In this document: positions 1 through 11,238 of the stretch, piece after piece | How the letters are laid out: every line of letters starts with the position of its first letter | Numbering within the stretch: the first letter of the stretch is position 1 | DNA from: a virus | Lineage: Duplodnaviria; Heunggongvirae; Uroviricota; Caudoviricetes | Reading direction: 5' to 3' (one strand) | IMG/VR virus record: IMGVR_UViG_2802429224_000011 | DNA length: 11,238 nt | Program-made: the position numbers and the translations under genes | The notes under the pieces: model-generated | What the model was told of the DNA's origin: nothing | Seen by the model: the letters and a program-made list of their open reading frames with translations, nothing else | Databases searched by the model: none

Positions 1-513
1 ATGTTTAAACTCAATAAATTGACTATTTCTTTATTAGCTATTTTTGCTCTAAGTGGATGTCAATCCAATGCAGATAATTTTGCAGCTGATGTTTATGACA
101 CCACCCAAGTTAACTCTAAACAAGAAACCAAAATGGTAACTATTGTTTCTGTTCTTCCAGCCAAAATTGCAGTTGACAATAAAGCAAATAAAGAAGCTGC
201 ACAAACATTCGGAGCTGTTGTTGGTGCTGTTACTGGCGGAATTATTGGGCATAACACCAAGAATGGTTCGAAGTTAGCAACTGCTGCTGGCGCCGCAGGA
301 GGAACCGCACTTGGTGCAGCTGCTGGTTCATTAGTCAAAGATAAAACAATTGTTGAAGGCGTTTCTCTAACGTACAAAGAAGGTACAAAAGTTTATACAT
401 CGACTCAAGTTGGTAGAGCTTGCCAATTTGCGCCTGGATTAGCAGCCATGATTTCAACTAAAGAAAACGAAACACGTATTCAACCAAATGCAACATGCCC
501 TGATAATAAATAA
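1..513 (+). CDS. Outer-membrane lipoprotein, glycine-zipper (SlyB/Pcp-like) family
   Basis: N-terminal signal peptide with lipobox LSGC (MFKLNKLTISLLAIFALSGCQSN). Central glycine-zipper tract GAVVGAVTGGIIGH...AAGAAGGTALGAAAGS. Overall layout matches SlyB-like 17-kDa lipoproteins as I remember them. AT-rich codon usage, unlike the rest of the window. Confidence 0.75.
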   Translation: MFKLNKLTISLLAIFALSGCQSNADNFAADVYDTTQVNSKQETKMVTIVSVLPAKIAVDNKANKEAAQTFGAVVGAVTGGIIGHNTKNGSKLATAAGAAGGTALGAAAGSLVKDKTIVEGVSLTYKEGTKVYTSTQVGRACQFAPGLAAMISTKENETRIQPNATCPDNK

Positions 514-525
514 TGGTCATTTCAG

Positions 526-1071
526 ATGACACGTCTTGCTTTATATATACTATTAGCTTTGCCGTGCCTAAGCACTTTTTACGTTAACGCGTCTTCTTTA
601 CAGGAACAATTAGCGGCTATTGCGCGAGCCGAAAATGAAGGTAAAGCCGAAGAAAAACGTATTGAAGATGCACGTAAAGAACAAGAGCGCCAACGTGCCA
701 ATGCGGAAAGGATTCGCAAAGAGAAAGCAGCGGCTATGGCAGCAGCAAAAGAAAAACAACGACGAGCGGCTGAGTTTGAGCGTAAAGCTAAGCTCGAAGC
801 AGAGATGGCGGCAGATAAAAAACGCGATCAAGATTATGAAGATCAATTACGCCAACTTGAACTAGAAAACCGAAAACTCGAGCTCGAAGCTAAAAGGGCC
901 AGAGTAAATAGAGCAAACGATTTTCTGGACCAAGAACTCAAGGAGCGAGCTGCACAAACTGACGTTATTCAATCAGAAGCGGACGCTCGGCGTAATATTT
1001 CAACTGGTACCAAAGAATTGTTGCAAAGTGAGGGAAAAGCGAGAGAGAGTAAAGCTGATAGCTGGTGGTAA
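526..1071 (+). CDS. Secreted or periplasmic coiled-coil protein, unknown function
   Basis: 181-aa ORF starting 13 bp after the lipoprotein stop. Sec-type signal peptide (MTRLALYILLALPCLSTFYVNA|SS) followed by highly charged K/E/R/A-rich heptad-like sequence. No strong Shine-Dalgarno seen, so the start is uncertain. AT-rich like the preceding gene. Confidence 0.55.
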   Translation: MTRLALYILLALPCLSTFYVNASSLQEQLAAIARAENEGKAEEKRIEDARKEQERQRANAERIRKEKAAAMAAAKEKQRRAAEFERKAKLEAEMAADKKRDQDYEDQLRQLELENRKLELEAKRARVNRANDFLDQELKERAAQTDVIQSEADARRNISTGTKELLQSEGKARESKADSWW

Positions 1072-1077
1072 TAATAT

Positions 1078-1099
1078 AGTGAGGGGTGCTCCCCTCACT
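1078..1099. terminator. Perfect palindromic hairpin between convergent genes, candidate bidirectional terminator
   Basis: AGTGAGGGG-TGCT-CCCCTCACT: 9-bp perfect stem, 4-nt loop. Lies 7 nt after the plus-strand gene stop (1069-1071) and about 40 nt after the minus-strand operon's last stop (1140-1142). A/U-rich flank on the minus-strand side (ACUAUAUUAUUA). Confidence 0.5.
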
Positions 1100-1139
1100 A
1101 CCGCTATAATATGACAACTTGTTATTTGCATTTTCTGAG

Positions 1140-1718
1140 TTAATTACTGCTAATTGCAATCGCTCTGATTGAGCGTAAATCATCAAGATTATTCAGTTCT
1201 TCCTTCATCTCCCGCTGACGTTGATAAATCTCGTCATTGCGATCGACCTGTGCCTGCGCCATTACTACCGCCAGTTCTTCCAGTTCCGGCATCGACAGTT
1301 TCACCTGTTGATTATTGGCGTCACCCCATGCAAGGGCGGTTCGTGCCGTATCGGATTTCGCCGCCATTACTACCGGATAAAGACGAGCCAGTGAGTCGGA
1401 GCCAGCATTCCAGGTGCGGCCGTTCCATTCGAACGTGAACGGCTGCGCCTCCTGTTCTGTGCGCCACGCCTCGATTTCCATCTTTTTGGCATCTTTTGCC
1501 TCTGCGATAAGTTCGGGCGTGACGGTGAACGGGGCAATTTCACCCCATTTGCCGCTCTGTAACTCTTCCCAGATGCGCTGGCCTGTCGGTGCGGTATCAT
1601 CCTGCATGGCGGTATACAGGACGAATTCCGTTTCACCTTCAAATAACACCTCGCAGTCAACCGCACCATTTTCAAGATAATGCGCGTTTCTGATGCCTTT
1701 TACCGCTCTGATTTTCAT
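1140..1718 (-). CDS. Putative tail fibre chaperone/assembly protein (DUF4376-like), partner of the upstream Stf-type fibre
   Basis: 192-aa ORF starting 13 nt after the tail fibre stop with RBS GGGGAA 7 nt upstream of ATG. Position immediately downstream of a tail fibre is typical for fibre chaperones. Lacks the classical Tfa C-terminal ...W-P motif, so the functional call rests on position and weak resemblance. Confidence 0.55.
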   Translation of the reverse strand: MKIRAVKGIRNAHYLENGAVDCEVLFEGETEFVLYTAMQDDTAPTGQRIWEELQSGKWGEIAPFTVTPELIAEAKDAKKMEIEAWRTEQEAQPFTFEWNGRTWNAGSDSLARLYPVVMAAKSDTARTALAWGDANNQQVKLSMPELEELAVVMAQAQVDRNDEIYQRQREMKEELNNLDDLRSIRAIAISSN

Positions 1719-1731
1719 GTTTTATTCCCCG

Positions 1732-4700
1732 TTACTCGATGCGCACAAACAGGCATGTTAAAGCCCCATTGGTAGCCACGCCGCTGTAACCGGACAGCGC
1801 CATATAACGCCCCGGAAAACTGTAGCTGCCTGCACCATAAACTGTAAGTTGTGCTGAATAGGTGTATGAGCCCGTCTCACTGAACATGGATGCGATACGA
1901 ACCGGCCCCAGACGGGACCCCGGCACCACGTCGCCCAGACCAATTTTTATGGACGTATCACCCGTCTCAGTTCCCTGATATGCCGCCAGTATTGGCACAC
2001 CAACCGCCGGATATTTGTAATATGAGCCTGAGCCCGCCATCCTGGACAACAGGTACGCCAGTGAATCTCCGTCGTAGACAACTACCCGCGATGACATGTT
2101 CCAGCTGTTATCGCTGTCGTTGTACCGGTACTGCATATAGTGAATACAGTGTTCACCCTGATAATACTGGTTGTAACACATCAGGGTTTTAAATTTGCGG
2201 ACTGTGTCAGATTCACTGTTGGCGTACGGGGACCACATCACGTCAATAATGCCGTTAAATTGCGTGGTACCGGTAAGCAGTTGTGATGAATCTGTAATAC
2301 TGACCGCATACCGCCCCGGCGTGACTTTCTTCAGCCATTCAACGAAATCAGACAGTCCCTCAAACGCCAGGGCTTCAGTGCTGGCAAATGCCTGACCAAA
2401 TCCATGCATACCGGACAGCGCCAGCCTGCCCGGTGTACGGTCGCGGATATCGCTCTGGGGTTCCATCGTCGCAGCCGCTTTCAGCTCAAGCTCCGTGCGC
2501 ATGGCTTCAGGTGTGTCCAGTGCCAGTAATGCGCGGGCTTTTTCTGACAGCTGCGCCAGTAAAATCCGGCCCTCTTCACTGAAATAAGGCAGTGTGTTTT
2601 CTTCCGGTGTTATCTGGCTGACAGCCGTTAACACGCCATTAAGCGGCTGTTTACCTGCCAGTGCATTAGTGACCGTTGTCGCAAAGTTCGGGTCATTACC
2701 CAGCGCCGCTGCCAGCTCGTTCAGCGTGTCCAGGGCTTCAGGTGATGAGTCAACCAGCGCAGCGAGCAGTTTGCGGACAAACGCCGCATTGGCTATTTCA
2801 TTACCTGCTGCATCATCCGGTGGTGTTGGCGTGGACGGTGTTCCGGTCAGTGCCGGGCTTTTCAGTGGCGCACGGGTTTCAATCAGCGCCCTGAGTGAGG
2901 CCTCATCAACCTTCAGGTTTTCCCAGCCAACCAGATAACCACCATCTGATGACACCGCGCAACGGTTATAATAAATATGACCATTAACACCGTAATAAAT
3001 AATTATCTTATAGGCATTCTCATCATTCGGGCTGGTTTTAGGTTGTGGCCAGATAATTTCAATAACACCGTTTGTCTGTATGCCAGGCACCACCACATTT
3101 GTGTCCGCAAATACGGCATAACGACCGGGTTTTGCTGTTTTTACCCAGCGGAGAAAATCAGTTCCTGATTTAAATTCTTTTCTGTCGCTGCTGGAAAACA
3201 GGCTCCCGAAGCCGAACATACCAGGAATCGCCAGTCGGCCTTCGGTGCGGTCGTAAATATTCTCCTGTGCATCCTTCTGTGCTGCATTGCCAAGTTGTGG
3301 CGTCAGATTCGTCCAGGTGACCGGGGCGGTGATATTATCGCCACGAACGGTCATAAGAATCCGTCCGTCTTTTCCAAAAAACAGAACCAGCTTTGTTGCT
3401 GTCTGGCTGGTTTTGTCGCCCCAGCCATTATCCAGCCAGATAATTTCTGTTATCCCGGTTGTTTCTTCCGTTTGTGTGGAAAAGGTGTAATACCGTCCCG
3501 GATGTACGTTGTGCGCAGTTTTGGCTATGGTCACCATATCGCGGGCAATAATTGTCGTGCCTCCGGGATTCGTCATTCCGTAACCAAATGCACCAGGCAG
3601 CGCAACACGACCTTCCGTGCTGTCGTAAAGGTCTGTCTGTATGTCCCTTACCGCTGCGCTTTTCAGCTCAAGCTCATTACGCATGGCTTCCACTGTGGCC
3701 TGTGCCAGCAGTGACCGGGCTTTTTCTGACAGCGGAGACAGTGAAGCATTCCCGTCCTGATTAAAGCACAGAAGATTATCCGCCCGTTCTTCCAGATTAC
3801 TGATTGCGGTTAACACGTCACTGAGTGGTTGTTTACCCGCCAGCGCGTTCATGATTGTTGTCGCAAACTCCGGGTCATTGCCCAGCGCAGCTGCCAGCTC
3901 ATTCAGCGTGTCCAGGGCTTCCGGGGACGAGTCAACCAGTGCAGCGAGCAGTTTGCGGACAAATGCCGCGTTCGCTGTTTCCAGACCGGCAGCATCGTCC
4001 GGTGGGGTTGGTGTGGTGGGCGTGCCGGTGAATGCCGGGCTGTCCAGCGGCGCTTTTGTTTTCGTCTCGTCCATGACGGTTTTGACGGCCTTCGGTGTGG
4101 CTGCCAGTTCTTCGCTGTCGTTATCCGTATCACTACAGAGTTGCACCAGGCCTTTTTCTGTCGTGGAAGCATTGCTTCCCTTCAACTCATCAACTATCCG
4201 TTGCGCCTCGTCCCTGTGCTGTTTTGCGCCCTGCTCGCTTTTTGCTGCCGCTTCTGCACTGGCCTTTGCCTCGCCGCTCAGCGTTGCGACTTCACCGAGT
4301 TTATCAACAGCCTTATCGACGATTTTGTCTGCGTCCTTAACGGCCTGCTCTGCGCGAGCCGCATCCTGTGTGGCAGATGATGCCAGCTGTGCCACCTGCC
4401 TTTTATCTTCAGCAACGGCCTCGGCGTTCTGCTGTACGTTATCCGCCAGCGTCTCGCAGTCGCTCTTGATTTGTTGCGCATCAGCGACATGTTGCCCGGC
4501 CTGTCGTTCGCTTTCCGCTGCCGCCTCCGCGCTCTGCTGCGCCTGCGCCACCAGTTCTTCGAACCGCTTAACGACATCCGGTTTTAAATCGCCTTCATCG
4601 AGGGCGGTCAGAAAGTCGTTCAGTGTGCCGGGCTTTGAATCGTCGTAAACCGAAATATCACCAACACAATATTCTCTTTCAATACATGACCGAAGATAAA

Positions 4701-4878
4701 CGTCATATCTTCCGGTCTGAGCCTCAAATGCATATTCTCCTGCCGGCCCCGTCAAAACTGTTGCCACCGTTCTCATAACCACTGCGGATGTATTCTGTCG
4801 GGCTTTCAGAATAATATGGTATCCGGACATGGGGAGTCCCGTGCCATCCGTCAGCACCCCCGAAATTAATACAGACAT
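1732..4878 (-). CDS. Side tail fibre protein, lambdoid Stf-type, with duplicated collar repeats and three tip modules
   Basis: N-terminus MSVLISGVLTDGTG...ILKARQNTSAVV...YDDSKPGTLNDFL matches the N-terminal domain of E. coli prophage Stf proteins such as StfR. A/E/Q-rich helical shaft. Two copies of the fibre collar motif KGLVQL...ATPKAVK / APLxSPAxTGTP(T/S)TPTPP...AALVDSSPEALDTLNELAAALGNDP(E/N)FATT. RBS AGGAA 6 nt upstream of ATG, 24 nt after the D stop. Confidence 0.9.
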   Translation of the reverse strand: MSVLISGVLTDGTGLPMSGYHIILKARQNTSAVVMRTVATVLTGPAGEYAFEAQTGRYDVYLRSCIEREYCVGDISVYDDSKPGTLNDFLTALDEGDLKPDVVKRFEELVAQAQQSAEAAAESERQAGQHVADAQQIKSDCETLADNVQQNAEAVAEDKRQVAQLASSATQDAARAEQAVKDADKIVDKAVDKLGEVATLSGEAKASAEAAAKSEQGAKQHRDEAQRIVDELKGSNASTTEKGLVQLCSDTDNDSEELAATPKAVKTVMDETKTKAPLDSPAFTGTPTTPTPPDDAAGLETANAAFVRKLLAALVDSSPEALDTLNELAAALGNDPEFATTIMNALAGKQPLSDVLTAISNLEERADNLLCFNQDGNASLSPLSEKARSLLAQATVEAMRNELELKSAAVRDIQTDLYDSTEGRVALPGAFGYGMTNPGGTTIIARDMVTIAKTAHNVHPGRYYTFSTQTEETTGITEIIWLDNGWGDKTSQTATKLVLFFGKDGRILMTVRGDNITAPVTWTNLTPQLGNAAQKDAQENIYDRTEGRLAIPGMFGFGSLFSSSDRKEFKSGTDFLRWVKTAKPGRYAVFADTNVVVPGIQTNGVIEIIWPQPKTSPNDENAYKIIIYYGVNGHIYYNRCAVSSDGGYLVGWENLKVDEASLRALIETRAPLKSPALTGTPSTPTPPDDAAGNEIANAAFVRKLLAALVDSSPEALDTLNELAAALGNDPNFATTVTNALAGKQPLNGVLTAVSQITPEENTLPYFSEEGRILLAQLSEKARALLALDTPEAMRTELELKAAATMEPQSDIRDRTPGRLALSGMHGFGQAFASTEALAFEGLSDFVEWLKKVTPGRYAVSITDSSQLLTGTTQFNGIIDVMWSPYANSESDTVRKFKTLMCYNQYYQGEHCIHYMQYRYNDSDNSWNMSSRVVVYDGDSLAYLLSRMAGSGSYYKYPAVGVPILAAYQGTETGDTSIKIGLGDVVPGSRLGPVRIASMFSETGSYTYSAQLTVYGAGSYSFPGRYMALSGYSGVATNGALTCLFVRIE
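2677..2871. repeat. Intragenic direct repeat copy 2 (collar-encoding) within the tail fibre gene
   Basis: About 195 bp, roughly 85-90% identical to 3859-4053 (offset 1182 bp), with perfect runs such as gcagcgagcagtttgcggacaaa and ttcagcgtgtccagggcttc. Also visible as near-identical antisense ORF translations (GSLPSAAASSFSVSRASGDESTSAASSLRTNAA in ORFs 2594..2938 and 3851..4648). Weaker similarity continues to about 2400. Confidence 0.85.
3859..4053. repeat. Intragenic direct repeat copy 1 (collar-encoding) within the tail fibre gene
   Basis: Partner of 2677-2871. Weaker similarity (about 75-80%) continues to about 3590, covering the ELELK...DRTxGR(L/V)A motif. Confidence 0.85.
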
Positions 4879-4902
4879 GTTTATTTCCTGATTCAGAAAA
4901 CA

Positions 4903-5991
4903 TTAACCAAAATAATTGACGCCTTTTTTCTTGCCACTGGCTTTCCCCTTTGCAGAAATATCCGTGGTCAGTGACAGATTCAGCGTAAATCCCTGTCCCG
5001 GTACCAGTGAAAACTCCACAGACTCAGCCTGCCAGTGATGGTCCTCACGCACACCAAATCCCTGCGTGACAAAACGCATCTCCGCCCCTGCTTTCAGCAG
5101 TTCCGGCCTGCAGGGCAACGTTATCGTCATCTGGCGTCCGGCTTTCTGCACACGTTTAACCTTCGACTCTGCACAGTGTTTTGCGGTGCCCTGGTCAGGC
5201 TGGGTAAACGGATGCCGCTTATCTGTTGACTCCACGTCAACTTTAACTTCACGTGTGCGTCCGTCACGAGCATCAAAATACCGGACCCCAACTTTCCCGC
5301 TCTTTTTATCCCCCTTCGCACCACCCGCAGCGCCCTGTCGCTCACCTTCACGATAATCCCAGTCTGATACCATACCCGGCGTAATGGTTATCTCGGGCGC
5401 ATTTCTGCCCCCCGTACTCTGTGATGCCCCGTATTCCAGAAATAACCAGTAGCCATTGGTCGGTTTACTGGTGGCGCCGTACATACCTGCAATGCGGGAT
5501 AAGAGGGCAGCATCAGATTCTGATGACTGCATCACCCACGGGATATGAATATCAGCAAGCACCGATGAGACGCGCGCCACCAGATTATTTTCAGTGGCGA
5601 TGGTTTTCACCAGGTCGCCCAGTGTAATATCGCTGAAAGCCCGGGTTTTCAGTGCGGTCACGTCTGCGCCATGTTTTGACGCATTCATGGGGGCTGCGGT
5701 GGCATAAATGGTGATTCGGCGGGGAGGACCTCCACTTGCCACCTGACAGACGGTAAAACTGCCTTTATTTACCAGGTTTCCGTTGAATCCCAGCCCCAGC
5801 GTTAATACCGCGCCTTTTGGTGGCAGCGCCATCGTCTCACTGAACAGGGTTATCATCAGTTCATCGGAGCGCTTTGTGGCAGCACCATTATCGGTATATC
5901 GCAGCTCAGCCAGCCCCCGCTTTATGGCCTTCGTGATATCCTCACCCTCTGCTGTCAGGCTGAAATCCGGCTGATACTCATTCAGTCCCAT
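4903..5991 (-). CDS. P2 gpD-like tail protein (late control gene D family)
   Basis: 362 aa with the gpD-family motif ...QSSESDAALLSRIAGMYGA.... Position directly after X in a FI-FII-E-T-U-X-D order. RBS AAGGAG upstream. Start overlaps the X stop. Confidence 0.88.
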   Translation of the reverse strand: MGLNEYQPDFSLTAEGEDITKAIKRGLAELRYTDNGAATKRSDELMITLFSETMALPPKGAVLTLGLGFNGNLVNKGSFTVCQVASGGPPRRITIYATAAPMNASKHGADVTALKTRAFSDITLGDLVKTIATENNLVARVSSVLADIHIPWVMQSSESDAALLSRIAGMYGATSKPTNGYWLFLEYGASQSTGGRNAPEITITPGMVSDWDYREGERQGAAGGAKGDKKSGKVGVRYFDARDGRTREVKVDVESTDKRHPFTQPDQGTAKHCAESKVKRVQKAGRQMTITLPCRPELLKAGAEMRFVTQGFGVREDHHWQAESVEFSLVPGQGFTLNLSLTTDISAKGKASGKKKGVNYFG

Positions 5992-6200
5992 AACTGAAAC
6001 GTCTCCTTCACTTCCGGTTCATATACCCAGTCCGGCAACACGATTTCCACTCCCGCCGGATAGACCGGACCAAGGTCAGCCAGTCCGGGATTGGCTTCCA
6101 GTACCGCCGCCAGTGACTGGTTAAGCCCGGTACTGCCATAGTGTCTCTGGCAGATGTCATCCAGCATATCGCCGTCAGTAGTCCGCCAGTTTTTCGCCAT
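5982..6200 (-). CDS. P2 gpX-like tail protein X (LysM-like small tail protein)
   Basis: 72 aa. GDMLDDICQRHYG...LEANPGLADLG...GVEIVLPD matches the gpX pattern (GDTLDAICxRYYG...ANPGLA). Overlaps U by 26 nt and D by 10 nt. Confidence 0.85.
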   Translation of the reverse strand: MAKNWRTTDGDMLDDICQRHYGSTGLNQSLAAVLEANPGLADLGPVYPAGVEIVLPDWVYEPEVKETFQLWD

Positions 6201-6663
6201 AGTATTTCAGCTCCAGTGTGAACGTTTTGTTCTTCGGCGCACCGCCGGGAAGAAAGGACGTGGTGTTATCTGAATAGGCAGTTGCCACGAAATACCCCAT
6301 CACATCACCTGTGCTCGAGACCAGAAGATGCGGGGCCGGATTGTCATCCACCATCTGAACCAGTGTATCAAGAGCGTCCATTCCCACACCGTCACGAAAT
6401 CCTGCATGCGCCATACCTTCAAGGGTTATTGTTCTGGCCCCCTTGCCGGTATACTGCAGCAGGTCGTTTTTTCCGATAAGCTGTTGTTCATCCCATCGCC
6501 ATTCCATCGTGCGCTTCATGGCGTTATAAGCAGCAGTATCAATACTGAATTCAAACTCACCAAACGACAGCATGACGCGAGAGGCGACATCCGTTAATGA
6601 TCCCACCGCGTCCCATGCTTCACGCTCAAGCCGGTTTACGCCCCAGCCCAGCAAATCCACCAT
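6175..6663 (-). CDS. P2 gpU-like tail protein
   Basis: gpU-family layout (F.F..D......EWRW...G......TGKGxxTITLEG...FLPGGxPK..TF.L.L). Start called at ATG 6661-6663 (protein MVDLLGWG...), preceded by GGGGG 7 nt upstream inside the T 3' end. The ORF track's 6669 start is an upstream GTG. Confidence 0.82.
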   Translation of the reverse strand: MVDLLGWGVNRLEREAWDAVGSLTDVASRVMLSFGEFEFSIDTAAYNAMKRTMEWRWDEQQLIGKNDLLQYTGKGARTITLEGMAHAGFRDGVGMDALDTLVQMVDDNPAPHLLVSSTGDVMGYFVATAYSDNTTSFLPGGAPKNKTFTLELKYYGEKLADY

Positions 6664-6665
6664 AT

Positions 6666-8318
6666 TCACCCCCAGAATGCATCACCATCAGTCATGCGGG
6701 AACGCTGACCAAAATTAATATCTCCCAGATTTTTCGTTACCCTGTCTGCCAGTTGTCCGGCATCCTCGCCGGGCTTCTGAGTGATGTTAAATTCCGCCCG
6801 TATCTGATACGTGGGTTTTACTTCCACCTGGCTGACACTGCCGGGGGTATACTGAAGAGCCGAGAGAGGATCCGAATTACCCTGCCCCTGAACTGCTGCA
6901 GGTAGTCCGTCAATATAGGTGCGGGATTTCTCTTTTATCGCCTTAAAATCAGGTTCTTCTTTCGGCCCCAGCAGAGGGTCGAGAAATGCATCAAACTTTT
7001 TATCGTCATGATTCCAGGGGAGATAACCGCGGGTGTCTTTATAGGCCTGTACAACCTGTTTTGTCAGGTCAGGATTTTGCCTGAGCAGTTCATCAAACCA
7101 TTCACCCTGACCGTTTTTCTGCGCCACTGCTCTCGCCAGCTCCGGCGACCCCATTTTTGCCAGATACTCCAGCACTTCCCGTCGGTCCTCTCGCGGATCA
7201 TCCGCCAGCCCCCACTCAATGGCTTTTTGTGTAATTCCGGCAAGAACTTTTCCAAATTTCCACATCCAGGCAGCCATGTCGATCAGCGCCGGCAGGGCAT
7301 CATCACGAATAAATGCCCGGATTTTTTCCAGCCCACCATTCTTAAACCAGGCCGCAAGGTCATCCGTCACCTGTTGAATATGTGGGGCAAGTTCATTACC
7401 CAGCTGTCCGCTGATTTCATCAATGGAAGAACTCAGAACATTACGGAGATTTGACAGTGCCACATGTCCCTGAACTGCGCCATCAGCCCCTGCCTTTGTC
7501 ACCAGGTTATAGCGTTTCTGCTCACTGATAAGCTCCCGATAAGTTTTCCCTGACAGACGCATCCAGGTCAGAATTTTATTGGCCTCACCACCGAACAACG
7601 CATCTGCCATCCCCGCCGCCTGCTGCTCATTCTCAACCTGCAGTAAGCGATCAAACAAAAATTCGACCTGCTCCTGGTTGTTTTTTCCGGCCATTACGCC
7701 CGCTTTCAGCCCCAGTTTACCGAATACCTCCTGAATGGCTCCTTTGTCCGTGGCACCATTATCATCGTCAAAAACCTTGTTCCGGTATTCCTCAAACAGA
7801 TCACCGATGTTTTCACCGTTTAACCCCATCTGACGGCCCAGTGAATCCCACGCCGCATAGGTTTCATAGTCCACCCCGTAGCTCCGCGCTATCCCTGCAC
7901 GCTCTGCTGTTTCCGAATTCCGGTTCAGTACCGCACTTGCACCTGCTGCCAGCGTAAGCCCGGAACCAACCGAAAGCCCCAGCCCGGTCTTAAGAACGGT
8001 CCCGGCCCACCCTTTCCAGCGAGCCAGACGTTCCGCGCGCGCCAGCTTACGGTTGAATTTGTCCTGCTCTCCGGTGGCATCATGAATTTTTTTACCCAGC
8101 TTTTCATACTGCTTTCGCAGATCAGTAATATTCTGTCCAGCCAGAACGCCAGCCTGAATTTTTCGTTTCAGTACGTCCTGCTGGCGTGTCAGACGAGCCA
8201 CTTCCTGTGTTGCCCCTGATAATCCGTGCTTCAACCCATCAACCGATTTTTTCCACGACGGATCTATCGTGCCTCCGATCCGGATATTCGCTTTAAGGTT
8301 ATCGCCCACCGTTGCCAT
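6666..8318 (-). CDS. Tail tape measure protein (gpT-like), short variant
   Basis: 550-aa protein in the position between E/E' and U. Internal Gly-rich hydrophobic segment (GWAGTVLKTGLGLSVGSGLTLAAGASAVL) typical of tape measure proteins. RBS GAGGAA 8 nt upstream of ATG. Confidence 0.82.
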   Translation of the reverse strand: MATVGDNLKANIRIGGTIDPSWKKSVDGLKHGLSGATQEVARLTRQQDVLKRKIQAGVLAGQNITDLRKQYEKLGKKIHDATGEQDKFNRKLARAERLARWKGWAGTVLKTGLGLSVGSGLTLAAGASAVLNRNSETAERAGIARSYGVDYETYAAWDSLGRQMGLNGENIGDLFEEYRNKVFDDDNGATDKGAIQEVFGKLGLKAGVMAGKNNQEQVEFLFDRLLQVENEQQAAGMADALFGGEANKILTWMRLSGKTYRELISEQKRYNLVTKAGADGAVQGHVALSNLRNVLSSSIDEISGQLGNELAPHIQQVTDDLAAWFKNGGLEKIRAFIRDDALPALIDMAAWMWKFGKVLAGITQKAIEWGLADDPREDRREVLEYLAKMGSPELARAVAQKNGQGEWFDELLRQNPDLTKQVVQAYKDTRGYLPWNHDDKKFDAFLDPLLGPKEEPDFKAIKEKSRTYIDGLPAAVQGQGNSDPLSALQYTPGSVSQVEVKPTYQIRAEFNITQKPGEDAGQLADRVTKNLGDINFGQRSRMTDGDAFWG

Positions 8319-8738
8319 AACATCGCTTCCTCTCTTCCGACTCCGCCAGCATCATTGCCACAAAATCCGTATACGGCAGCGCCATCACATCTCCGGGAGA
8401 CCACCCGAACCAGGCACCGGCACGCCGTATCGCTGTCAGGATGCTTTCTTCTTCCGCCGGACCGGCGGCAGCAAAAAAACATTAAACTGACGCTCCAGGG
8501 CCAGGTAATCACACGCTTCCATGTTCATCATGTCTGCCGCGTCCATCCCACACAGACCGGCAATCATATCCAGATCAGCCTCTGCTTCCGGTTTGTTACT
8601 CCGGCGATGCAACAGACGATCGCGGACAGTGGGCGCACGCATAGTGACGTGCGTGATCGTCTGTCCTGATGCGGTGACATACGGCACGGATAACACAATT
8701 TCCACGCTGCTGGCAGGAACACTGTTTTTTTCCGACAT
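8299..8738 (-). CDS. Predicted E+E' fusion product made by programmed -1 frameshift
   Basis: A -1 slip at TTTTTTG (minus strand, 8472-8478) opens a frame reading AAAGPAEEESILTAIRRAGAWFGWSPGDVMALPYTDFVAMMLAESEERKRCYGNGGR and stopping at TAA 8299-8301, just inside the T start. This mirrors the known P2 E/E' arrangement. Coordinates derived by hand translation. Confidence 0.6.
8436..8738 (-). CDS. P2 gpE-like tail assembly chaperone
   Basis: Motifs ...TASGQTITHVTMRAPTVRD...LDMIAGLCGMDAADMMNMEACDYLALERQ consistent with the gpE family. Start called at the second ATG (8736-8738, MSEKNSV...) because AGGAG lies 6 nt upstream of it. The ORF track's 8744 start is the alternative. Contains the TTTTTTG slippery site near its 3' end. 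Confidence 0.85.
   Translation of the reverse strand: MSEKNSVPASSVEIVLSVPYVTASGQTITHVTMRAPTVRDRLLHRRSNKPEAEADLDMIAGLCGMDAADMMNMEACDYLALERQFNVFLLPPVRRKKKAS
8472..8478 (-). other. Slippery heptamer TTTTTTG (programmed -1 ribosomal frameshift site)
   Basis: mRNA reads AAT GTT TTT TTG CTG CCG in the E frame. T-TTT-TTG is the heptamer used for the E/E' frameshift in P2-like phages. Confidence 0.6.
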
Positions 8739-8761
8739 AAGCATCTCCTTTAAAAAGAAAA

Positions 8762-8777
8762 GGCGGCCTGAGCCGCC
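8762..8777 (-). terminator. Intrinsic terminator/attenuator-like hairpin between tube and E
   Basis: On the minus strand: GGCGGC-TCAG-GCCGCC followed by UUUUCUUUUUAAA, located between the tube stop (8798-8800) and the E RBS. Confidence 0.5.
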
Positions 8778-8797
8778 TGAATGACAGGATCCCCGGA

Positions 8798-9316
8798 TTA
8801 AACCCGGATGATTTTTTTCAGATCCGCCAGAACATTAACGCCGTTAATACGACGCACAAATTCCTCCGGAATAATGCAGATGGTTTCCACACCGTCAACA
8901 GCCTGACGGTAATAACTCAGTGACATTTCCACCGTCACCGAAGCCTCTGCCTGTGACGTTGCGGGACGCGCATCCGGCGTGATACTGGTGATCATCCCCT
9001 GCAGAGTTTCCACCTGCCCGCTGGTCGCATTCCCCACCTGGTAAGCCTGGCGGACAACAATCTCCGGCGAATAAAGCCCGGCCTGTAATCCCAGCAGCGT
9101 AAGCATGGCAACATCATAACCATAAATCTTAAACGAACAGGTCAGCGCTTCCATGCCGTCATCCACTGCCACCGGTGCATCCATTGCGCCAGTTTTGATA
9201 TCCACTGTCGTGATATTAATGGCAGGTGGCGTGTATTCATGTGCCCCCTGAAGGCGGATCCCGCCAGGAAGAAATAACGCCCATGCGCGCAACAGTTTTT
9301 TTTCACCCGTAATCAT
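8798..9316 (-). CDS. P2 gpFII-like tail tube protein
   Basis: 172 aa, the same length as P2 FII as I recall it. C-terminal ...NGVNVLADLKKIIRV resembles the FII-family ending (NGVD.LAQHRRNIGL). Start overlaps the sheath stop by ATGA. Position directly after the sheath. Confidence 0.85.
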   Translation of the reverse strand: MITGEKKLLRAWALFLPGGIRLQGAHEYTPPAINITTVDIKTGAMDAPVAVDDGMEALTCSFKIYGYDVAMLTLLGLQAGLYSPEIVVRQAYQVGNATSGQVETLQGMITSITPDARPATSQAEASVTVEMSLSYYRQAVDGVETICIIPEEFVRRINGVNVLADLKKIIRV

Positions 9317-10788
9317 ACCGTCAGTTCCTCCAGCGCCAGTTTATTGTTAATCATTGCCCGCAGTGTCAGGCGCTCCAGTGGTGACTTCGGCCCAAAGTCA
9401 TAATCGATATACAACTGCCCTGCCGCCAGGGTTTCTGCAGTGTTCAGTTCATCGTTCAGCCATGCACTGCCACCGTGGATCGCGCCCAGATTTTTAAGCT
9501 GACGCATATAGGCATTAATGCTGCCAAGAATGTCGTCTGCCACATCCCGATCAAGCGGGCGATCGACATAAGGCAGCATGGCCTCCTGGATGCTGTCCTC
9601 AATCACATCTGCAGTGCGGCGTACCGGCTCAAAACGCCACTGACTGTGGGATGTGCACAGACGGTTACCCCAGTGTTTAAAACCGTCATGGCGAATAATG
9701 GTGGAGATATTTTCCATGTTCAGCAGGTTTGCCGTGCAGTTCTGCTCCCCGAGAATAAACGTATCCACCTGCTCCAGACCGGTGATATTCATCACGTCCT
9801 GGTTTGATTTGGACCACCACCACCCTTTTTCGTAATCAATACGGGCACGCAGCCCGGCAGCACGAGCCGAATATGGACGAAATATAGTTTGCCCGCTGTC
9901 ATCCGTCACTGACACGCGCGGACGCAGCAGCTCCACACGCCCACCAAATGACGCGCGCCGCTGAACCACATCCTGCGGCGTTGCCATTGAAGGCGAGTCA
10001 ATATAGGCCACAGCCCGCAGCTTCACGGCATACGTTTCCAGCGCCTTTGCCACGCCATCATCCTCACTGTACCCCGTGGCAATGAGGATGCGCGGTTGAT
10101 AGCCTGTCACGCCCTTACTTTCTGTCAGCGCCTCCATGGCCTGAATCACCGCCGCACGCTGTTCGGCCTCTTTCGTCTTTGTTTTACTTTCTGCGCGCAC
10201 CACAATCACCAGCGCACCAGTCTGGTCAAAAATATCTCGCAGGGCCGGGTATAATGTTCCGGCTGTGCCCAGTTTCCCTGCCTGAGTAATGGCCCCTGCC
10301 ACCACCACTGGTGTATTGACCGGGAACGCCTCATCTTCTCCGCCGGATAACGTCAGGCTGAACGGCAACACCACTTTATTTTCAGCGTCTCCTGCATTCA
10401 GGGTGCTGACAGCCGCCGTCACAGGCGAATCCCCCAGCGCATTCACCACTTCAGTCACACGGTCCGCCGTGGCGTTAACCTGGCTGTGTTCGTCCGTCCC
10501 CAGTGTTATCGTCAGGGTCGTACCTTTCAGCGAGGCCACTGTCTGCGCGTTTTGTTCTGTGGCAGCCACAGCAACAACCGAAATCTTATTACCGGCCCGA
10601 CCTTCCTGTTTCGCCGTGAAATCCAGCGCCGTTCCCAGCAGCCAGGAGCCGGCTGTGCCGGAAGCGCACACACCACCAGAGGCGTCCGGCGCTGTCCCCA
10701 CCAGGCCAATCACTGCCGTGGAGATGGTCTGCACGGCAACCGTGCCTGTCGTCAGTTCAATGGTTTCAACACCATGTAATCCGGGCAT
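9313..10788 (-). CDS. P2 gpFI-like contractile tail sheath protein, with an extra internal segment
   Basis: N-terminus MPGLHGVETIELTTGTVAVQTISTAVIGLVGTAPDASGG and C-terminus ...ETLAAGQLYIDYDFGPKSPLERLTLRAMINNKL closely mirror P2 FI termini ([34 protein letters not shown]; ...ETLKAGKLYIDYDYTP...LENLTLRQRI). Also ...ILIATGY... and WGNRLCTS motifs. RBS GGGAG upstream. Confidence 0.9.
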   Translation of the reverse strand: MPGLHGVETIELTTGTVAVQTISTAVIGLVGTAPDASGGVCASGTAGSWLLGTALDFTAKQEGRAGNKISVVAVAATEQNAQTVASLKGTTLTITLGTDEHSQVNATADRVTEVVNALGDSPVTAAVSTLNAGDAENKVVLPFSLTLSGGEDEAFPVNTPVVVAGAITQAGKLGTAGTLYPALRDIFDQTGALVIVVRAESKTKTKEAEQRAAVIQAMEALTESKGVTGYQPRILIATGYSEDDGVAKALETYAVKLRAVAYIDSPSMATPQDVVQRRASFGGRVELLRPRVSVTDDSGQTIFRPYSARAAGLRARIDYEKGWWWSKSNQDVMNITGLEQVDTFILGEQNCTANLLNMENISTIIRHDGFKHWGNRLCTSHSQWRFEPVRRTADVIEDSIQEAMLPYVDRPLDRDVADDILGSINAYMRQLKNLGAIHGGSAWLNDELNTAETLAAGQLYIDYDFGPKSPLERLTLRAMINNKLALEELTV

Positions 10789-10801
10789 ACATTTCTCCCA
10801 T

Positions 10802-10823
10802 AAAAAAACCGCCCTCAGGCGGT
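10802..10823 (-). terminator. Intrinsic terminator between the G-like gene and the sheath gene
   Basis: Minus-strand mRNA: ACCGCC-UGAG-GGCGGU followed by UUUUUUU, then GGGAGAAAUGU-AUG (sheath RBS and start). Confidence 0.55.
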
Positions 10824-10842
10824 CAGATGATTAACTTCTTTT

Positions 10843-11238
10843 TCAGGTATTTTGTGGCTGCTCAGGCCAGCTAATATTGTTGTAAGTGGTCTTATCCGTA
10901 ATAGCGCTGAAATCCATCGCCTGCAGCGATTTCGCGTAAATGCGGTACGCTTTGAGCTTTTCCCTGTCTTCGTCGCTGATTAAACCCAGCAGCAGGTCTT
11001 TTTCCCATTCGCTGGTCATGATACTGACCTGTTTTAACAGTGCGTCACGCTCATCTTCCGCTTTAAGTTTGTAGTCGAAAACAAATTCATCATTGCGGTA
11101 GAACCAGTATCCCGACGCCTCAATGCGACGATTAGCGGTAATATCCGGCAACTCAATCACACTTTTATTTTCCGGGCAGATTGAGGTGATGTCTTTTCCA
11201 ACCCAGACCACTTCGCCAGTTTCAACATAAATAACTTT
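10843..11238 (-). CDS. P2 gpG-like tail fibre assembly protein, 5' end lies beyond the window
   Basis: Reading frame stays open to the window edge (..KVIYVETGEVVWVGKDI..). VIELPDITANRRIEASGYWFYRNDEFV resembles P2 G ([27 protein letters not shown]). C-terminal KAYRIY...D.S......ISWPEQP matches the Tfa-family ending (KYRV.L.RVD.S.....WP..P). Confidence 0.8.
   Translation of the reverse strand, partial: KVIYVETGEVVWVGKDITSICPENKSVIELPDITANRRIEASGYWFYRNDEFVFDYKLKAEDERDALLKQVSIMTSEWEKDLLLGLISDEDREKLKAYRIYAKSLQAMDFSAITDKTTYNNISWPEQPQNT

Follow-up and report, generated by a model that had tools for sequence, protein, structure and literature searches.

We analysed an 11,238-nt stretch of DNA (the window) corresponding to IMG/VR virus record IMGVR_UViG_2802429224_000011, a member of the Caudoviricetes. 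It carries the distal tail genes of a lambdoid prophage of Escherichia, with a contractile tail in the gene order of phage P2, a fibre set of the P2 H/G type, and a second fibre that is anchored by an N-terminal domain of the lambda side tail fibre (Stf) type and followed by a DUF4376 chaperone. An open reading frame (ORF) listing and translation of the window identify ten minus-strand genes, all read in the same direction, and a plus-strand pair. Gene identities were assigned through Pfam and PHROG profile searches, and identities to P2 were computed with tblastn. The ORFs are long and their profile matches strong, far exceeding chance, and every minus-strand gene listed in a first-pass annotation of the sequence was recovered at its coordinates by ORF calls and Pfam/PHROG matches (Table 1).

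The upstream edge of the window falls within the gene for a tail fibre assembly protein (Tfa), of which the C-terminal 131 aa lie inside it, with the N-terminus and the H-type fibre gene located beyond the window end. This Tfa is a clear homologue of Mu gpU (5YVQ_B, E 2e-14). Downstream of the sheath and tube genes, the E reading frame stops at 8436, and a slippery T_TTT_TTG can be read at 8472-8478; a −1 slip at this site would translate into a 57-aa extension ending at 8299 and overlapping the start of the tape-measure gene. The Pfam GPD match of the D protein falls under the cut-off (22.9 vs 30.1 bits), and its assignment follows from PHROG 52. As first described, 24 nt separate the D stop from the ATG of the 1048-aa fibre, with an AGGAA ribosome-binding site 6 nt ahead of it. 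The suggested translational linkage of the fibre to D is not demonstrated, since the gene has its own Shine-Dalgarno sequence and the arrangement implies co-transcription only. A 13-nt gap separates the fibre stop from the DUF4376 gene.

Table 1. Coordinates and supporting evidence for genes, domains and hairpins in the window.
Feature	Coordinates	Strand	Evidence or remark
Tail fibre assembly protein (P2 G / Mu U type)	10843..11238	-	Caudo_TAP E 1e-20
Terminator-like hairpin in 54-nt Tfa-sheath spacer	10807..10824	-	Strong
Tail sheath, 491 aa	9313..10788	-	PF04984, PF17482; PHROG 23 E 5e-109
Tail tube, 172 aa	8798..9316	-	PF04985 E 4e-24
Terminator-like hairpin between tube and E	8761..8778	-	Strong
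E and E+E' tail assembly chaperones	8299..8744	-	PF10109 on E (8436-8744); direct reading and translation
Tape measure protein, 550 aa	6666..8318	-	PHROG 3654 E 7e-214 and several tape-measure PHROGs
gpU-like tail protein	6175..6669	-	PF06995 E 3e-27
gpX-like tail protein	5982..6200	-	PF05489 E 1e-19
gpD-like baseplate hub protein	4903..5991	-	PHROG 52 E 3e-95
Mosaic fibre, 1048 aa	1732..4878	-	PF08400 residues 1-134 E 1.7e-54; Phage_fiber_2 residues 238-277
Stf-type collar (anchor) domain, fibre residues 1-95	4594..4878	-	PF08400
DUF4376-type fibre chaperone, 192 aa	1140..1718	-	PF14301 E 4e-16 (residues 73-178); PHROG 1141 E 2e-87
GC-rich hairpin between convergent DUF4376 and DUF5384 genes	1079..1098	.	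Direct reading; likely late-operon end
Two low-GC (40-44%) cargo genes at prophage end	1..1071	+	Glycine-zipper lipoprotein 1-513; DUF5384 protein 526-1071

Prophage context and late transcription

The closest complete relative of the window, in E. coli 52F4, covers 98% of its length at 94.7% identity. The 52F4 element is approximately 48.6 kb long and is bounded by ompW and an ompW fragment. Its first part encodes an integrase, an excisionase, cI/cro-type regulators and RusA, followed by holins and an endolysin. The head region comprises terS, terL, a W-like protein, portal, S49 protease, decoration protein, major capsid protein, FI and an FII-like protein, and the tail region runs through V-W-J-I-H-G, sheath to D, the Stf-type fibre and the DUF4376 gene before ending in the two cargo genes that the window also carries. 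Identity to the lambda counterparts amounts to 59% for the capsid protein, 53% for the decoration protein and 34% for the FII-like protein. Peduoviridae as a whole are marked by the head and packaging genes of P2 (Q, P, O, N, M and L), in place of which the relatives carry the lambda-type set. The 52F4 copy also contains an IS21-family element, ISEc12, upstream of the holin and endolysin genes on the regulatory-gene side (locus L112, 3089-5391), and this copy may not be inducible.

The flank beyond the window was examined through its relatives, in which the G-like Tfa gene is preceded by a fibre gene. An IMG/VR contig identical to the window (L007) encodes the full 181-aa Tfa, and a fibre gene ends 2 nt upstream of it. 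In a near-identical relative (L016), the upstream genes encode a gp25-like W, J, a Tail_P2_I protein and a 461-aa fibre with the PF12571 anchor of P2 H-type fibres. The P2 H-type fibre that the first-pass annotation had placed just outside the window is thus seen in both loci. The two fibre-chaperone sets it had described are present as well, pairing an H-type fibre with a Caudo_TAP Tfa and an Stf-type fibre with a DUF4376 protein. In all likelihood, the window represents the distal late operon of a lambdoid temperate Escherichia prophage with a lambda-type head, a distantly P2-like tail and a terminal, portable Stf-type fibre/DUF4376 cassette.

The late genes all lie in one orientation. The lack of an ogr gene after D, pointed out in the first-pass annotation, is no puzzle: the phage is lambdoid in layout and not P2-like in regulation. 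No Ogr-type zinc-finger ORF follows D among the ORFs of the window, and the Ogr-type motif TGT-N12-ACA is found in none of its spacers, occurring only inside coding regions and at chance frequency; P2-type regulation was rejected on both counts. Given the lambdoid layout, the hairpin between Tfa and sheath and the motif-free spacers, the absence of ogr is to be expected. Late transcription is probably lambdoid, involving Q-type read-through of the internal hairpins instead of Ogr-dependent initiation. The hairpins inside the late operon may set expression ratios or require antitermination.

Distribution of the terminal fibre cassette

Of 5426 complete E. coli genomes, 78 contain the lineage's D gene, and a query spanning the junction between D and the Stf-type N-domain (StfN) of the fibre is covered to at least 80% in 74 of them. 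E. coli CEA224S, with an intact copy, matches the junction at 99.9%. IMG/VR holds 31 loci with this D, and all 28 that extend past it have an Stf-type N-domain 27-29 nt downstream. This domain is 88-100% identical in 27 of these loci and matches weakly in the distant L036 (D 49% identical), which encodes H, Tfa, sheath to D and an 881-aa protein with a weak PF08400/CarboxypepD_reg N-terminus. The distal fibre and the chaperone vary widely among the IMG/VR loci, in a mosaic fashion. What had been interpreted as a singular mosaic fusion is therefore the standard layout of an entire prophage lineage of E. coli, undescribed but fairly common. One member, L017, harbors an additional block (58-5144) composed of a fibre C-terminus, a Tfa, an StfN fibre and a DUF4376 gene within its H gene, beside the cassette after D; the block resembles a recombination import of a contiguous phiP27-type cassette.

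Beyond this lineage, the related loci that were fetched reveal the StfN fibre and DUF4376 gene as the last late-gene pair in at least five architectures. The pair follows L54 and L55 in phiP27, tail1 and tail2 in Rac-SA53, J, lom, Stf and Tfa in a lambda-like prophage of E. coli C5, H and Tfa in an E. coli sister lineage with the gene order of Hafnia phage yong2, and D in the lineage of the window. A Caudo_TAP Tfa gene directly precedes the fibre gene, with a fixed 27-nt spacer, in all of these except the last; here the fibre follows D because the P2 gene order puts D last among the tail genes. These loci indicate that an Stf-anchored fibre with its DUF4376 partner constitutes the last late pair of E. 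coli temperate phages whatever their tail type, be it lambda-like, phiP27/Mu-like, Rac-SA53-like or either of two P2-like gene orders, and the window provides a clear example of this rule. The C5 prophage, located at ssrA (L114, 9496-14437), encodes J, lom, Stf (774 aa), Tfa, a second StfN fibre (474 aa) and the DUF4376 protein. The second fibre carries the anchor type found after D and puts two Stf-type fibres on one siphophage, with the junction at full length in two complete genomes only.

The cassette is accessory and dispensable for the tail lineage. It is absent from E. coli A19, whose tail ends at D beside host genes. A scan with a single D protein returned no relatives, and an alignment-based rescan identified 18 in other Enterobacterales genera, consisting of two P2-order Serratia loci and 16 yong2-order loci. 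The cassette is missing from both Serratia loci (L131, L133) and from 15 of the 16 yong2-order loci, the exception being that of Erwinia endophytica. These absences bear out the earlier suggestion that the 3' end of the operon carries an accessory module. In E. coli, by contrast with a single recent event, the cassette is an old, lineage-wide feature. The gpI protein of A19 (L115, 4260-7403) is 1047 aa long and combines Tail_P2_I with an extension of about 850 aa containing Big_2 and BspA-type leucine-rich repeat domains. This extension, with its Ig-like and leucine-rich repeat domains, may be an alternative way of adding a second receptor-binding function.

Past the cassette, the two cargo genes converge on the tail operon. 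The lipoprotein combines a glycine-zipper domain with a weak, sub-threshold TraT-like match, and the DUF5384 protein has a signal-like N-terminus. The same two genes also adjoin the chaperone gene in 52F4 and in three further relatives (L010, L012 and L013). Scans of the window for tRNAs and with Rfam and PADLOC returned nothing, and an NCBIfam search made no addition.

The Stf-type fibre, its chaperone and its docking

The fibre is organized into an anchor, a coiled coil, a duplicated shaft module, three knob copies of about 100 aa each and a distinct tip. The two shaft modules (aa 273-481 and 667-882) are 57% identical, and beneath the duplication lies a 254-nt direct repeat in the gene (2618-2871 and 3800-4053), with 82% identity between copies lying 1182 nt apart. 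Recombination between the repeat copies would remove 394 aa in frame, and the fibres of relatives range from 467 to 1061 aa. A stretch of the shaft shows 51% identity to P2 H, and over the last 250 aa no deposited phage fibre exceeds 36% identity. Judged by sequence comparison, the fibre follows the typical mosaic pattern. A phage recorded on Actinobacillus pleuropneumoniae (PP818812.1), an odd host label, has 82% nucleotide identity to the fibre and Tfa genes.

The claim that the N-terminal domain is of the lambdoid Stf type is corroborated on three counts. Beyond the PF08400 match (Table 1), residues 1-93 match the Ur-lambda Stf collar (9E7M/9MGH) with 47% identity (phmmer, E 1.7e-19), and a Foldseek search with a model of residues 1-134 (predicted local distance difference test, pLDDT, 77) returned the same collar first (E 3.6e-9; template-modelling score 0.88 normalised to target). 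Within the lineage, the median ratio of nonsynonymous to synonymous substitution rates (dN/dS) is 0.12 for the collar domain and 0.08 for D. This purifying selection on the anchor domain speaks for its being functional.

The gene downstream of the fibre encodes a DUF4376 protein only, with no cognate Caudo_TAP Tfa directly following the fibre gene. It had been described as a non-canonical chaperone, but DUF4376 proteins are a published class of fibre chaperones. In Alteromonas phage V22, the DUF4376 protein gp27 is required for its fibre, and A5-type DUF4376 chaperones have been proposed to act as transient caps (PMC7289586, PMC10579305). The H-fibre of Campylobacter CJIE1 likewise depends on its DUF4376 neighbour. 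Among 13 relatives, identity over the first 65 residues of the chaperone tracks identity of the fibre tip (Spearman 0.83), compared to a Spearman of 0.58 for the C-terminal DUF4376 part. This pattern fits a putative tip-specific N-terminal part mounted on a conserved module. The protein has no sequence relative in the PDB, and its AlphaFold model (pLDDT 78) found no convincing solved relative.

Taken together, these elements suggest a particle that would carry two fibre systems. The H-type fibres would attach to the baseplate by way of their PF12571 domain, with the Mu-U-type Tfa folding them, and a ring of N-domains would hold the Stf-type trimers, which the DUF4376 protein would fold or cap. 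The latter fibre would provide a dispensable extra device for adsorption and host range, as Stf does in lambda, where twelve Stf N-domains (four trimers) ring the junction between the last tube ring and gpM, and where Stf is dispensable, with adsorption 10-30-fold faster in its presence.

Several considerations weigh against this interpretation of the locus and its particle. The window stops inside Tfa, so the prophage context comes from relatives, and some copies may be defective, in view of the IS21 insertion in the late region of the 52F4 copy. The presence of both fibres on one particle is something that we infer. For gpV (tube) and gpM (distal tail protein), the docking partners of Stf in lambda, tblastn finds no homologue in the 52F4 prophage, and the known docking mode is not simply transferable because sheath and baseplate overlie the equivalent junction. 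Lastly, the sample behind the co-variation of chaperone and tip is small and phylogenetically non-independent.

Where the Stf-type fibre would dock on a sheathed tail can be approached through the structural relatives of its anchor. After the Ur-lambda collar, the Foldseek search returned the collar spike gp40 of the Vibrio myophage XM1 (7KJK_A3, E 5.9e-7, 25% identity over 130 columns) and the neck fibre gp82N of cyanophage A-1(L) (8KEG_a, E 5.5e-3), followed by tail-tip chains of mycobacteriophage Bxb1 (9d93_Ka, E 7e-3), of which 9d93_La is named 'Tail collar fibers, gp4'. In XM1, six gp40 trimers bind gp4 and the terminator gp5 on the neck (PMC10457771). In A-1(L), five trimers bind gp5, also at the neck. 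The Stf-type fibre might then be a neck (collar) fibre, with its N-domains forming a ring around exposed neck proteins between head and sheath, and the virion would combine baseplate H fibres with whisker-like neck fibres. We advance this reading tentatively, as a refinement of the two-fibre particle and not as its replacement. Besides the two myophage neck-fibre anchors, it is in keeping with the ring site of lambda, at the junction of the tube and the distal tail protein, being buried under sheath and baseplate in a myophage, and with the presence of near-identical anchor types on very different tails, which fits a self-assembling ring. Against it, the link to XM1 is structural: a sequence search with residues 1-190, coiled coil included, recovers gp40 (E 9e-8), but phmmer with residues 1-103 misses it, and we claim a structural match alone. 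The confidence of the model is moderate, the neck proteins of the 52F4 relative (the FII-like protein and those of 240 and 183 aa) have no informative PDB sequence matches except FII, and, as a rough estimate that was not computed, about 1000 aa of fibre may not suffice to bridge the distance between neck and cell.

An equally tentative reading is that the Stf-type fibre attaches around the edge of the baseplate, or to the first fibre or the Tfa retained by it. The baseplate would then bear a branched or second fibre set, as in T5-like and other multi-fibre phages. Such docking would agree with the position of the fibre gene directly after a Caudo_TAP Tfa gene in most architectures, and the extended gpI of the cassette-free A19 suggests that a second binding function on the baseplate wedge is possible. 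The anchor, however, does not track the Tfa, being 88-100% identical within the lineage while Tfa ranges from 33 to 100%, and every homologue of the anchor with a solved structure encircles the tail axis as part of a ring instead of attaching to fibres. The idea that anchor clades track tail or head type was also set aside, as the clades are not cleanly sorted by either: the after-D clade is also found on a lambda-like siphophage, and the phiP27 L56-type clade on four tail types. This pattern favours a tolerant, self-assembling ring and is also compatible with docking on a common partner in the fibre region.

A further alternative holds that the fibre gene is a spare or alternative cassette, kept as a reservoir for recombination or put to use in only some of the particles, and that its product is not incorporated alongside the H fibres. 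The highly mosaic distal fibre, with long near-identical stretches common to the fibres of other phage types, and the internal direct repeat, which could drive length variation, would suit such a role. We consider it quite unlikely, given that the gene has its own ribosome-binding site and an intact cognate chaperone, lies inside the late operon with no terminator ahead of it, encodes an anchor domain under purifying selection (at a dN/dS close to the D value reported above) and is retained in this arrangement in 74 genomes. The weakest alternative, a phage-tail-like bacteriocin (R-type tailocin), had been raised because the window lacks head and lysis genes, its sole point in favour, and is highly improbable now that capsid, terminase, lysis, repressor and integrase genes are found in relatives, with 52F4 uniting head, packaging, lysis, immunity and integration genes in one ompW-flanked element and several IMG/VR relatives sitting on 40-48-kb predicted viral contigs.

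For the two-fibre particle, these observations allow a broader, speculative proposal, in which the Stf-type N-domain would be a generic ring-forming plug for the fibre and DUF4376 cassette on at least five unrelated tail architectures, sitting at the neck on contractile tails. If true, common E. coli temperate myophages would be 'whiskered', bearing a second and freely exchangeable host-range fibre. Docking of the anchor has been solved on the non-contractile tail of lambda only, in 2025, and its mode on sheathed tails matters for the prediction of prophage host range and for the engineering of fibres on tailocins and phage-derived delivery particles. Taken by itself, the locus is ordinary, and its most interesting residue lies in the docking site and in the rule of a plug-in fibre as last gene.

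Comparison with known systems

The sheath-to-D DNA has no match among deposited phages (megablast), and its proteins are distant relatives of those of P2. Identity to P2 is 35% for the sheath (FI), 22% for the tube, 33% for U, 51% for X, 38% for D (E 2e-28) and 30% for Tfa, with no tblastn match for E or the tape measure. The description of a P2-type tail block stands as regards this distant homology (33-51% for sheath, U, X and D), but not as regards X, which lies between U and D here and belongs to the O operon in P2 itself. The order of the P2 tail operons V-W-J-I-H-G and FI-FII-E-E'-T-U-D is otherwise shared, as seen in 52F4 and L016, and so are the type of E/E' slip site and the pairing of a PF12571 H-type fibre with a G-type Tfa. 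Compared to P2, the sheath has about 95 aa more and the tape measure 265 aa fewer (550 vs 815 aa for P2 T); from the ratio of tape-measure lengths, the tail is expected to be about one-third shorter than that of P2. The additional fibre cassette after D, the lambda-type head and the lambdoid layout, with neither ogr nor an Ogr-type promoter motif, further set the locus apart.

Among deposited phages, the nearest relatives are Hafnia phage yong2 and Citrobacter phage Chris1, to which D is 50% and 48% identical and the sheath 63% and 61% identical, respectively. Both share lambda-type head genes and an identical sheath-tube-E-T-U-X-D order with the locus. Their genes are however arranged as V, sheath to D and then W-J-I-H-G, after D, and neither phage has the StfN cassette.

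The pairing of fibre and chaperone has counterparts in V22 gp26/gp27 and A5 gp8/gp9, in which a protein of about 190 aa with a C-terminal DUF4376 domain directly follows the fibre, as it does here. These proteins have no close sequence relation to the one in the window, and the module is common to unrelated tail types. XM1 gp40 (PDB 7KJK; PMC10457771) shares the predicted fold of the N-domain and the following helix, and is likewise a trimeric fibre of a contractile-tailed phage. It has been seen on the neck, and by sequence the N-domain alone (residues 1-103) shows no similarity to it. Ur-lambda Stf (PDB 9E7M/9MGH; PMC12617516) shares the collar, the coiled-coil shaft, conserved fibre motifs and the position at the end of the late operon. 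In contrast with Ur-lambda, the tail here is contractile, the fibre has 1048 instead of 774 aa, with duplicated modules and an unrelated tip, and the chaperone is of the DUF4376 and not the Caudo_TAP type.

The most complete parallel is with phiP27 (L54-L57) and Rac-SA53 (tail1-tail4), which contain the same four gene types: a fibre, a Caudo_TAP Tfa, an StfN fibre and a DUF4376 gene. A literature search for dual fibres in phiP27-like phages returned nothing specific. Tfa is 91% identical to L55, fibre residues 135-626 are 94.5% identical to tail3, and the chaperone is 77% identical to its counterparts in both elements. The anchors of phiP27 and Rac-SA53 belong to a different clade (74-76% identical over residues 1-95) and their tail modules are unrelated. 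In both, the four genes stand side by side where the operon ends, whereas in the lineage of the window the sheath-to-D block separates the two fibre-chaperone sets.

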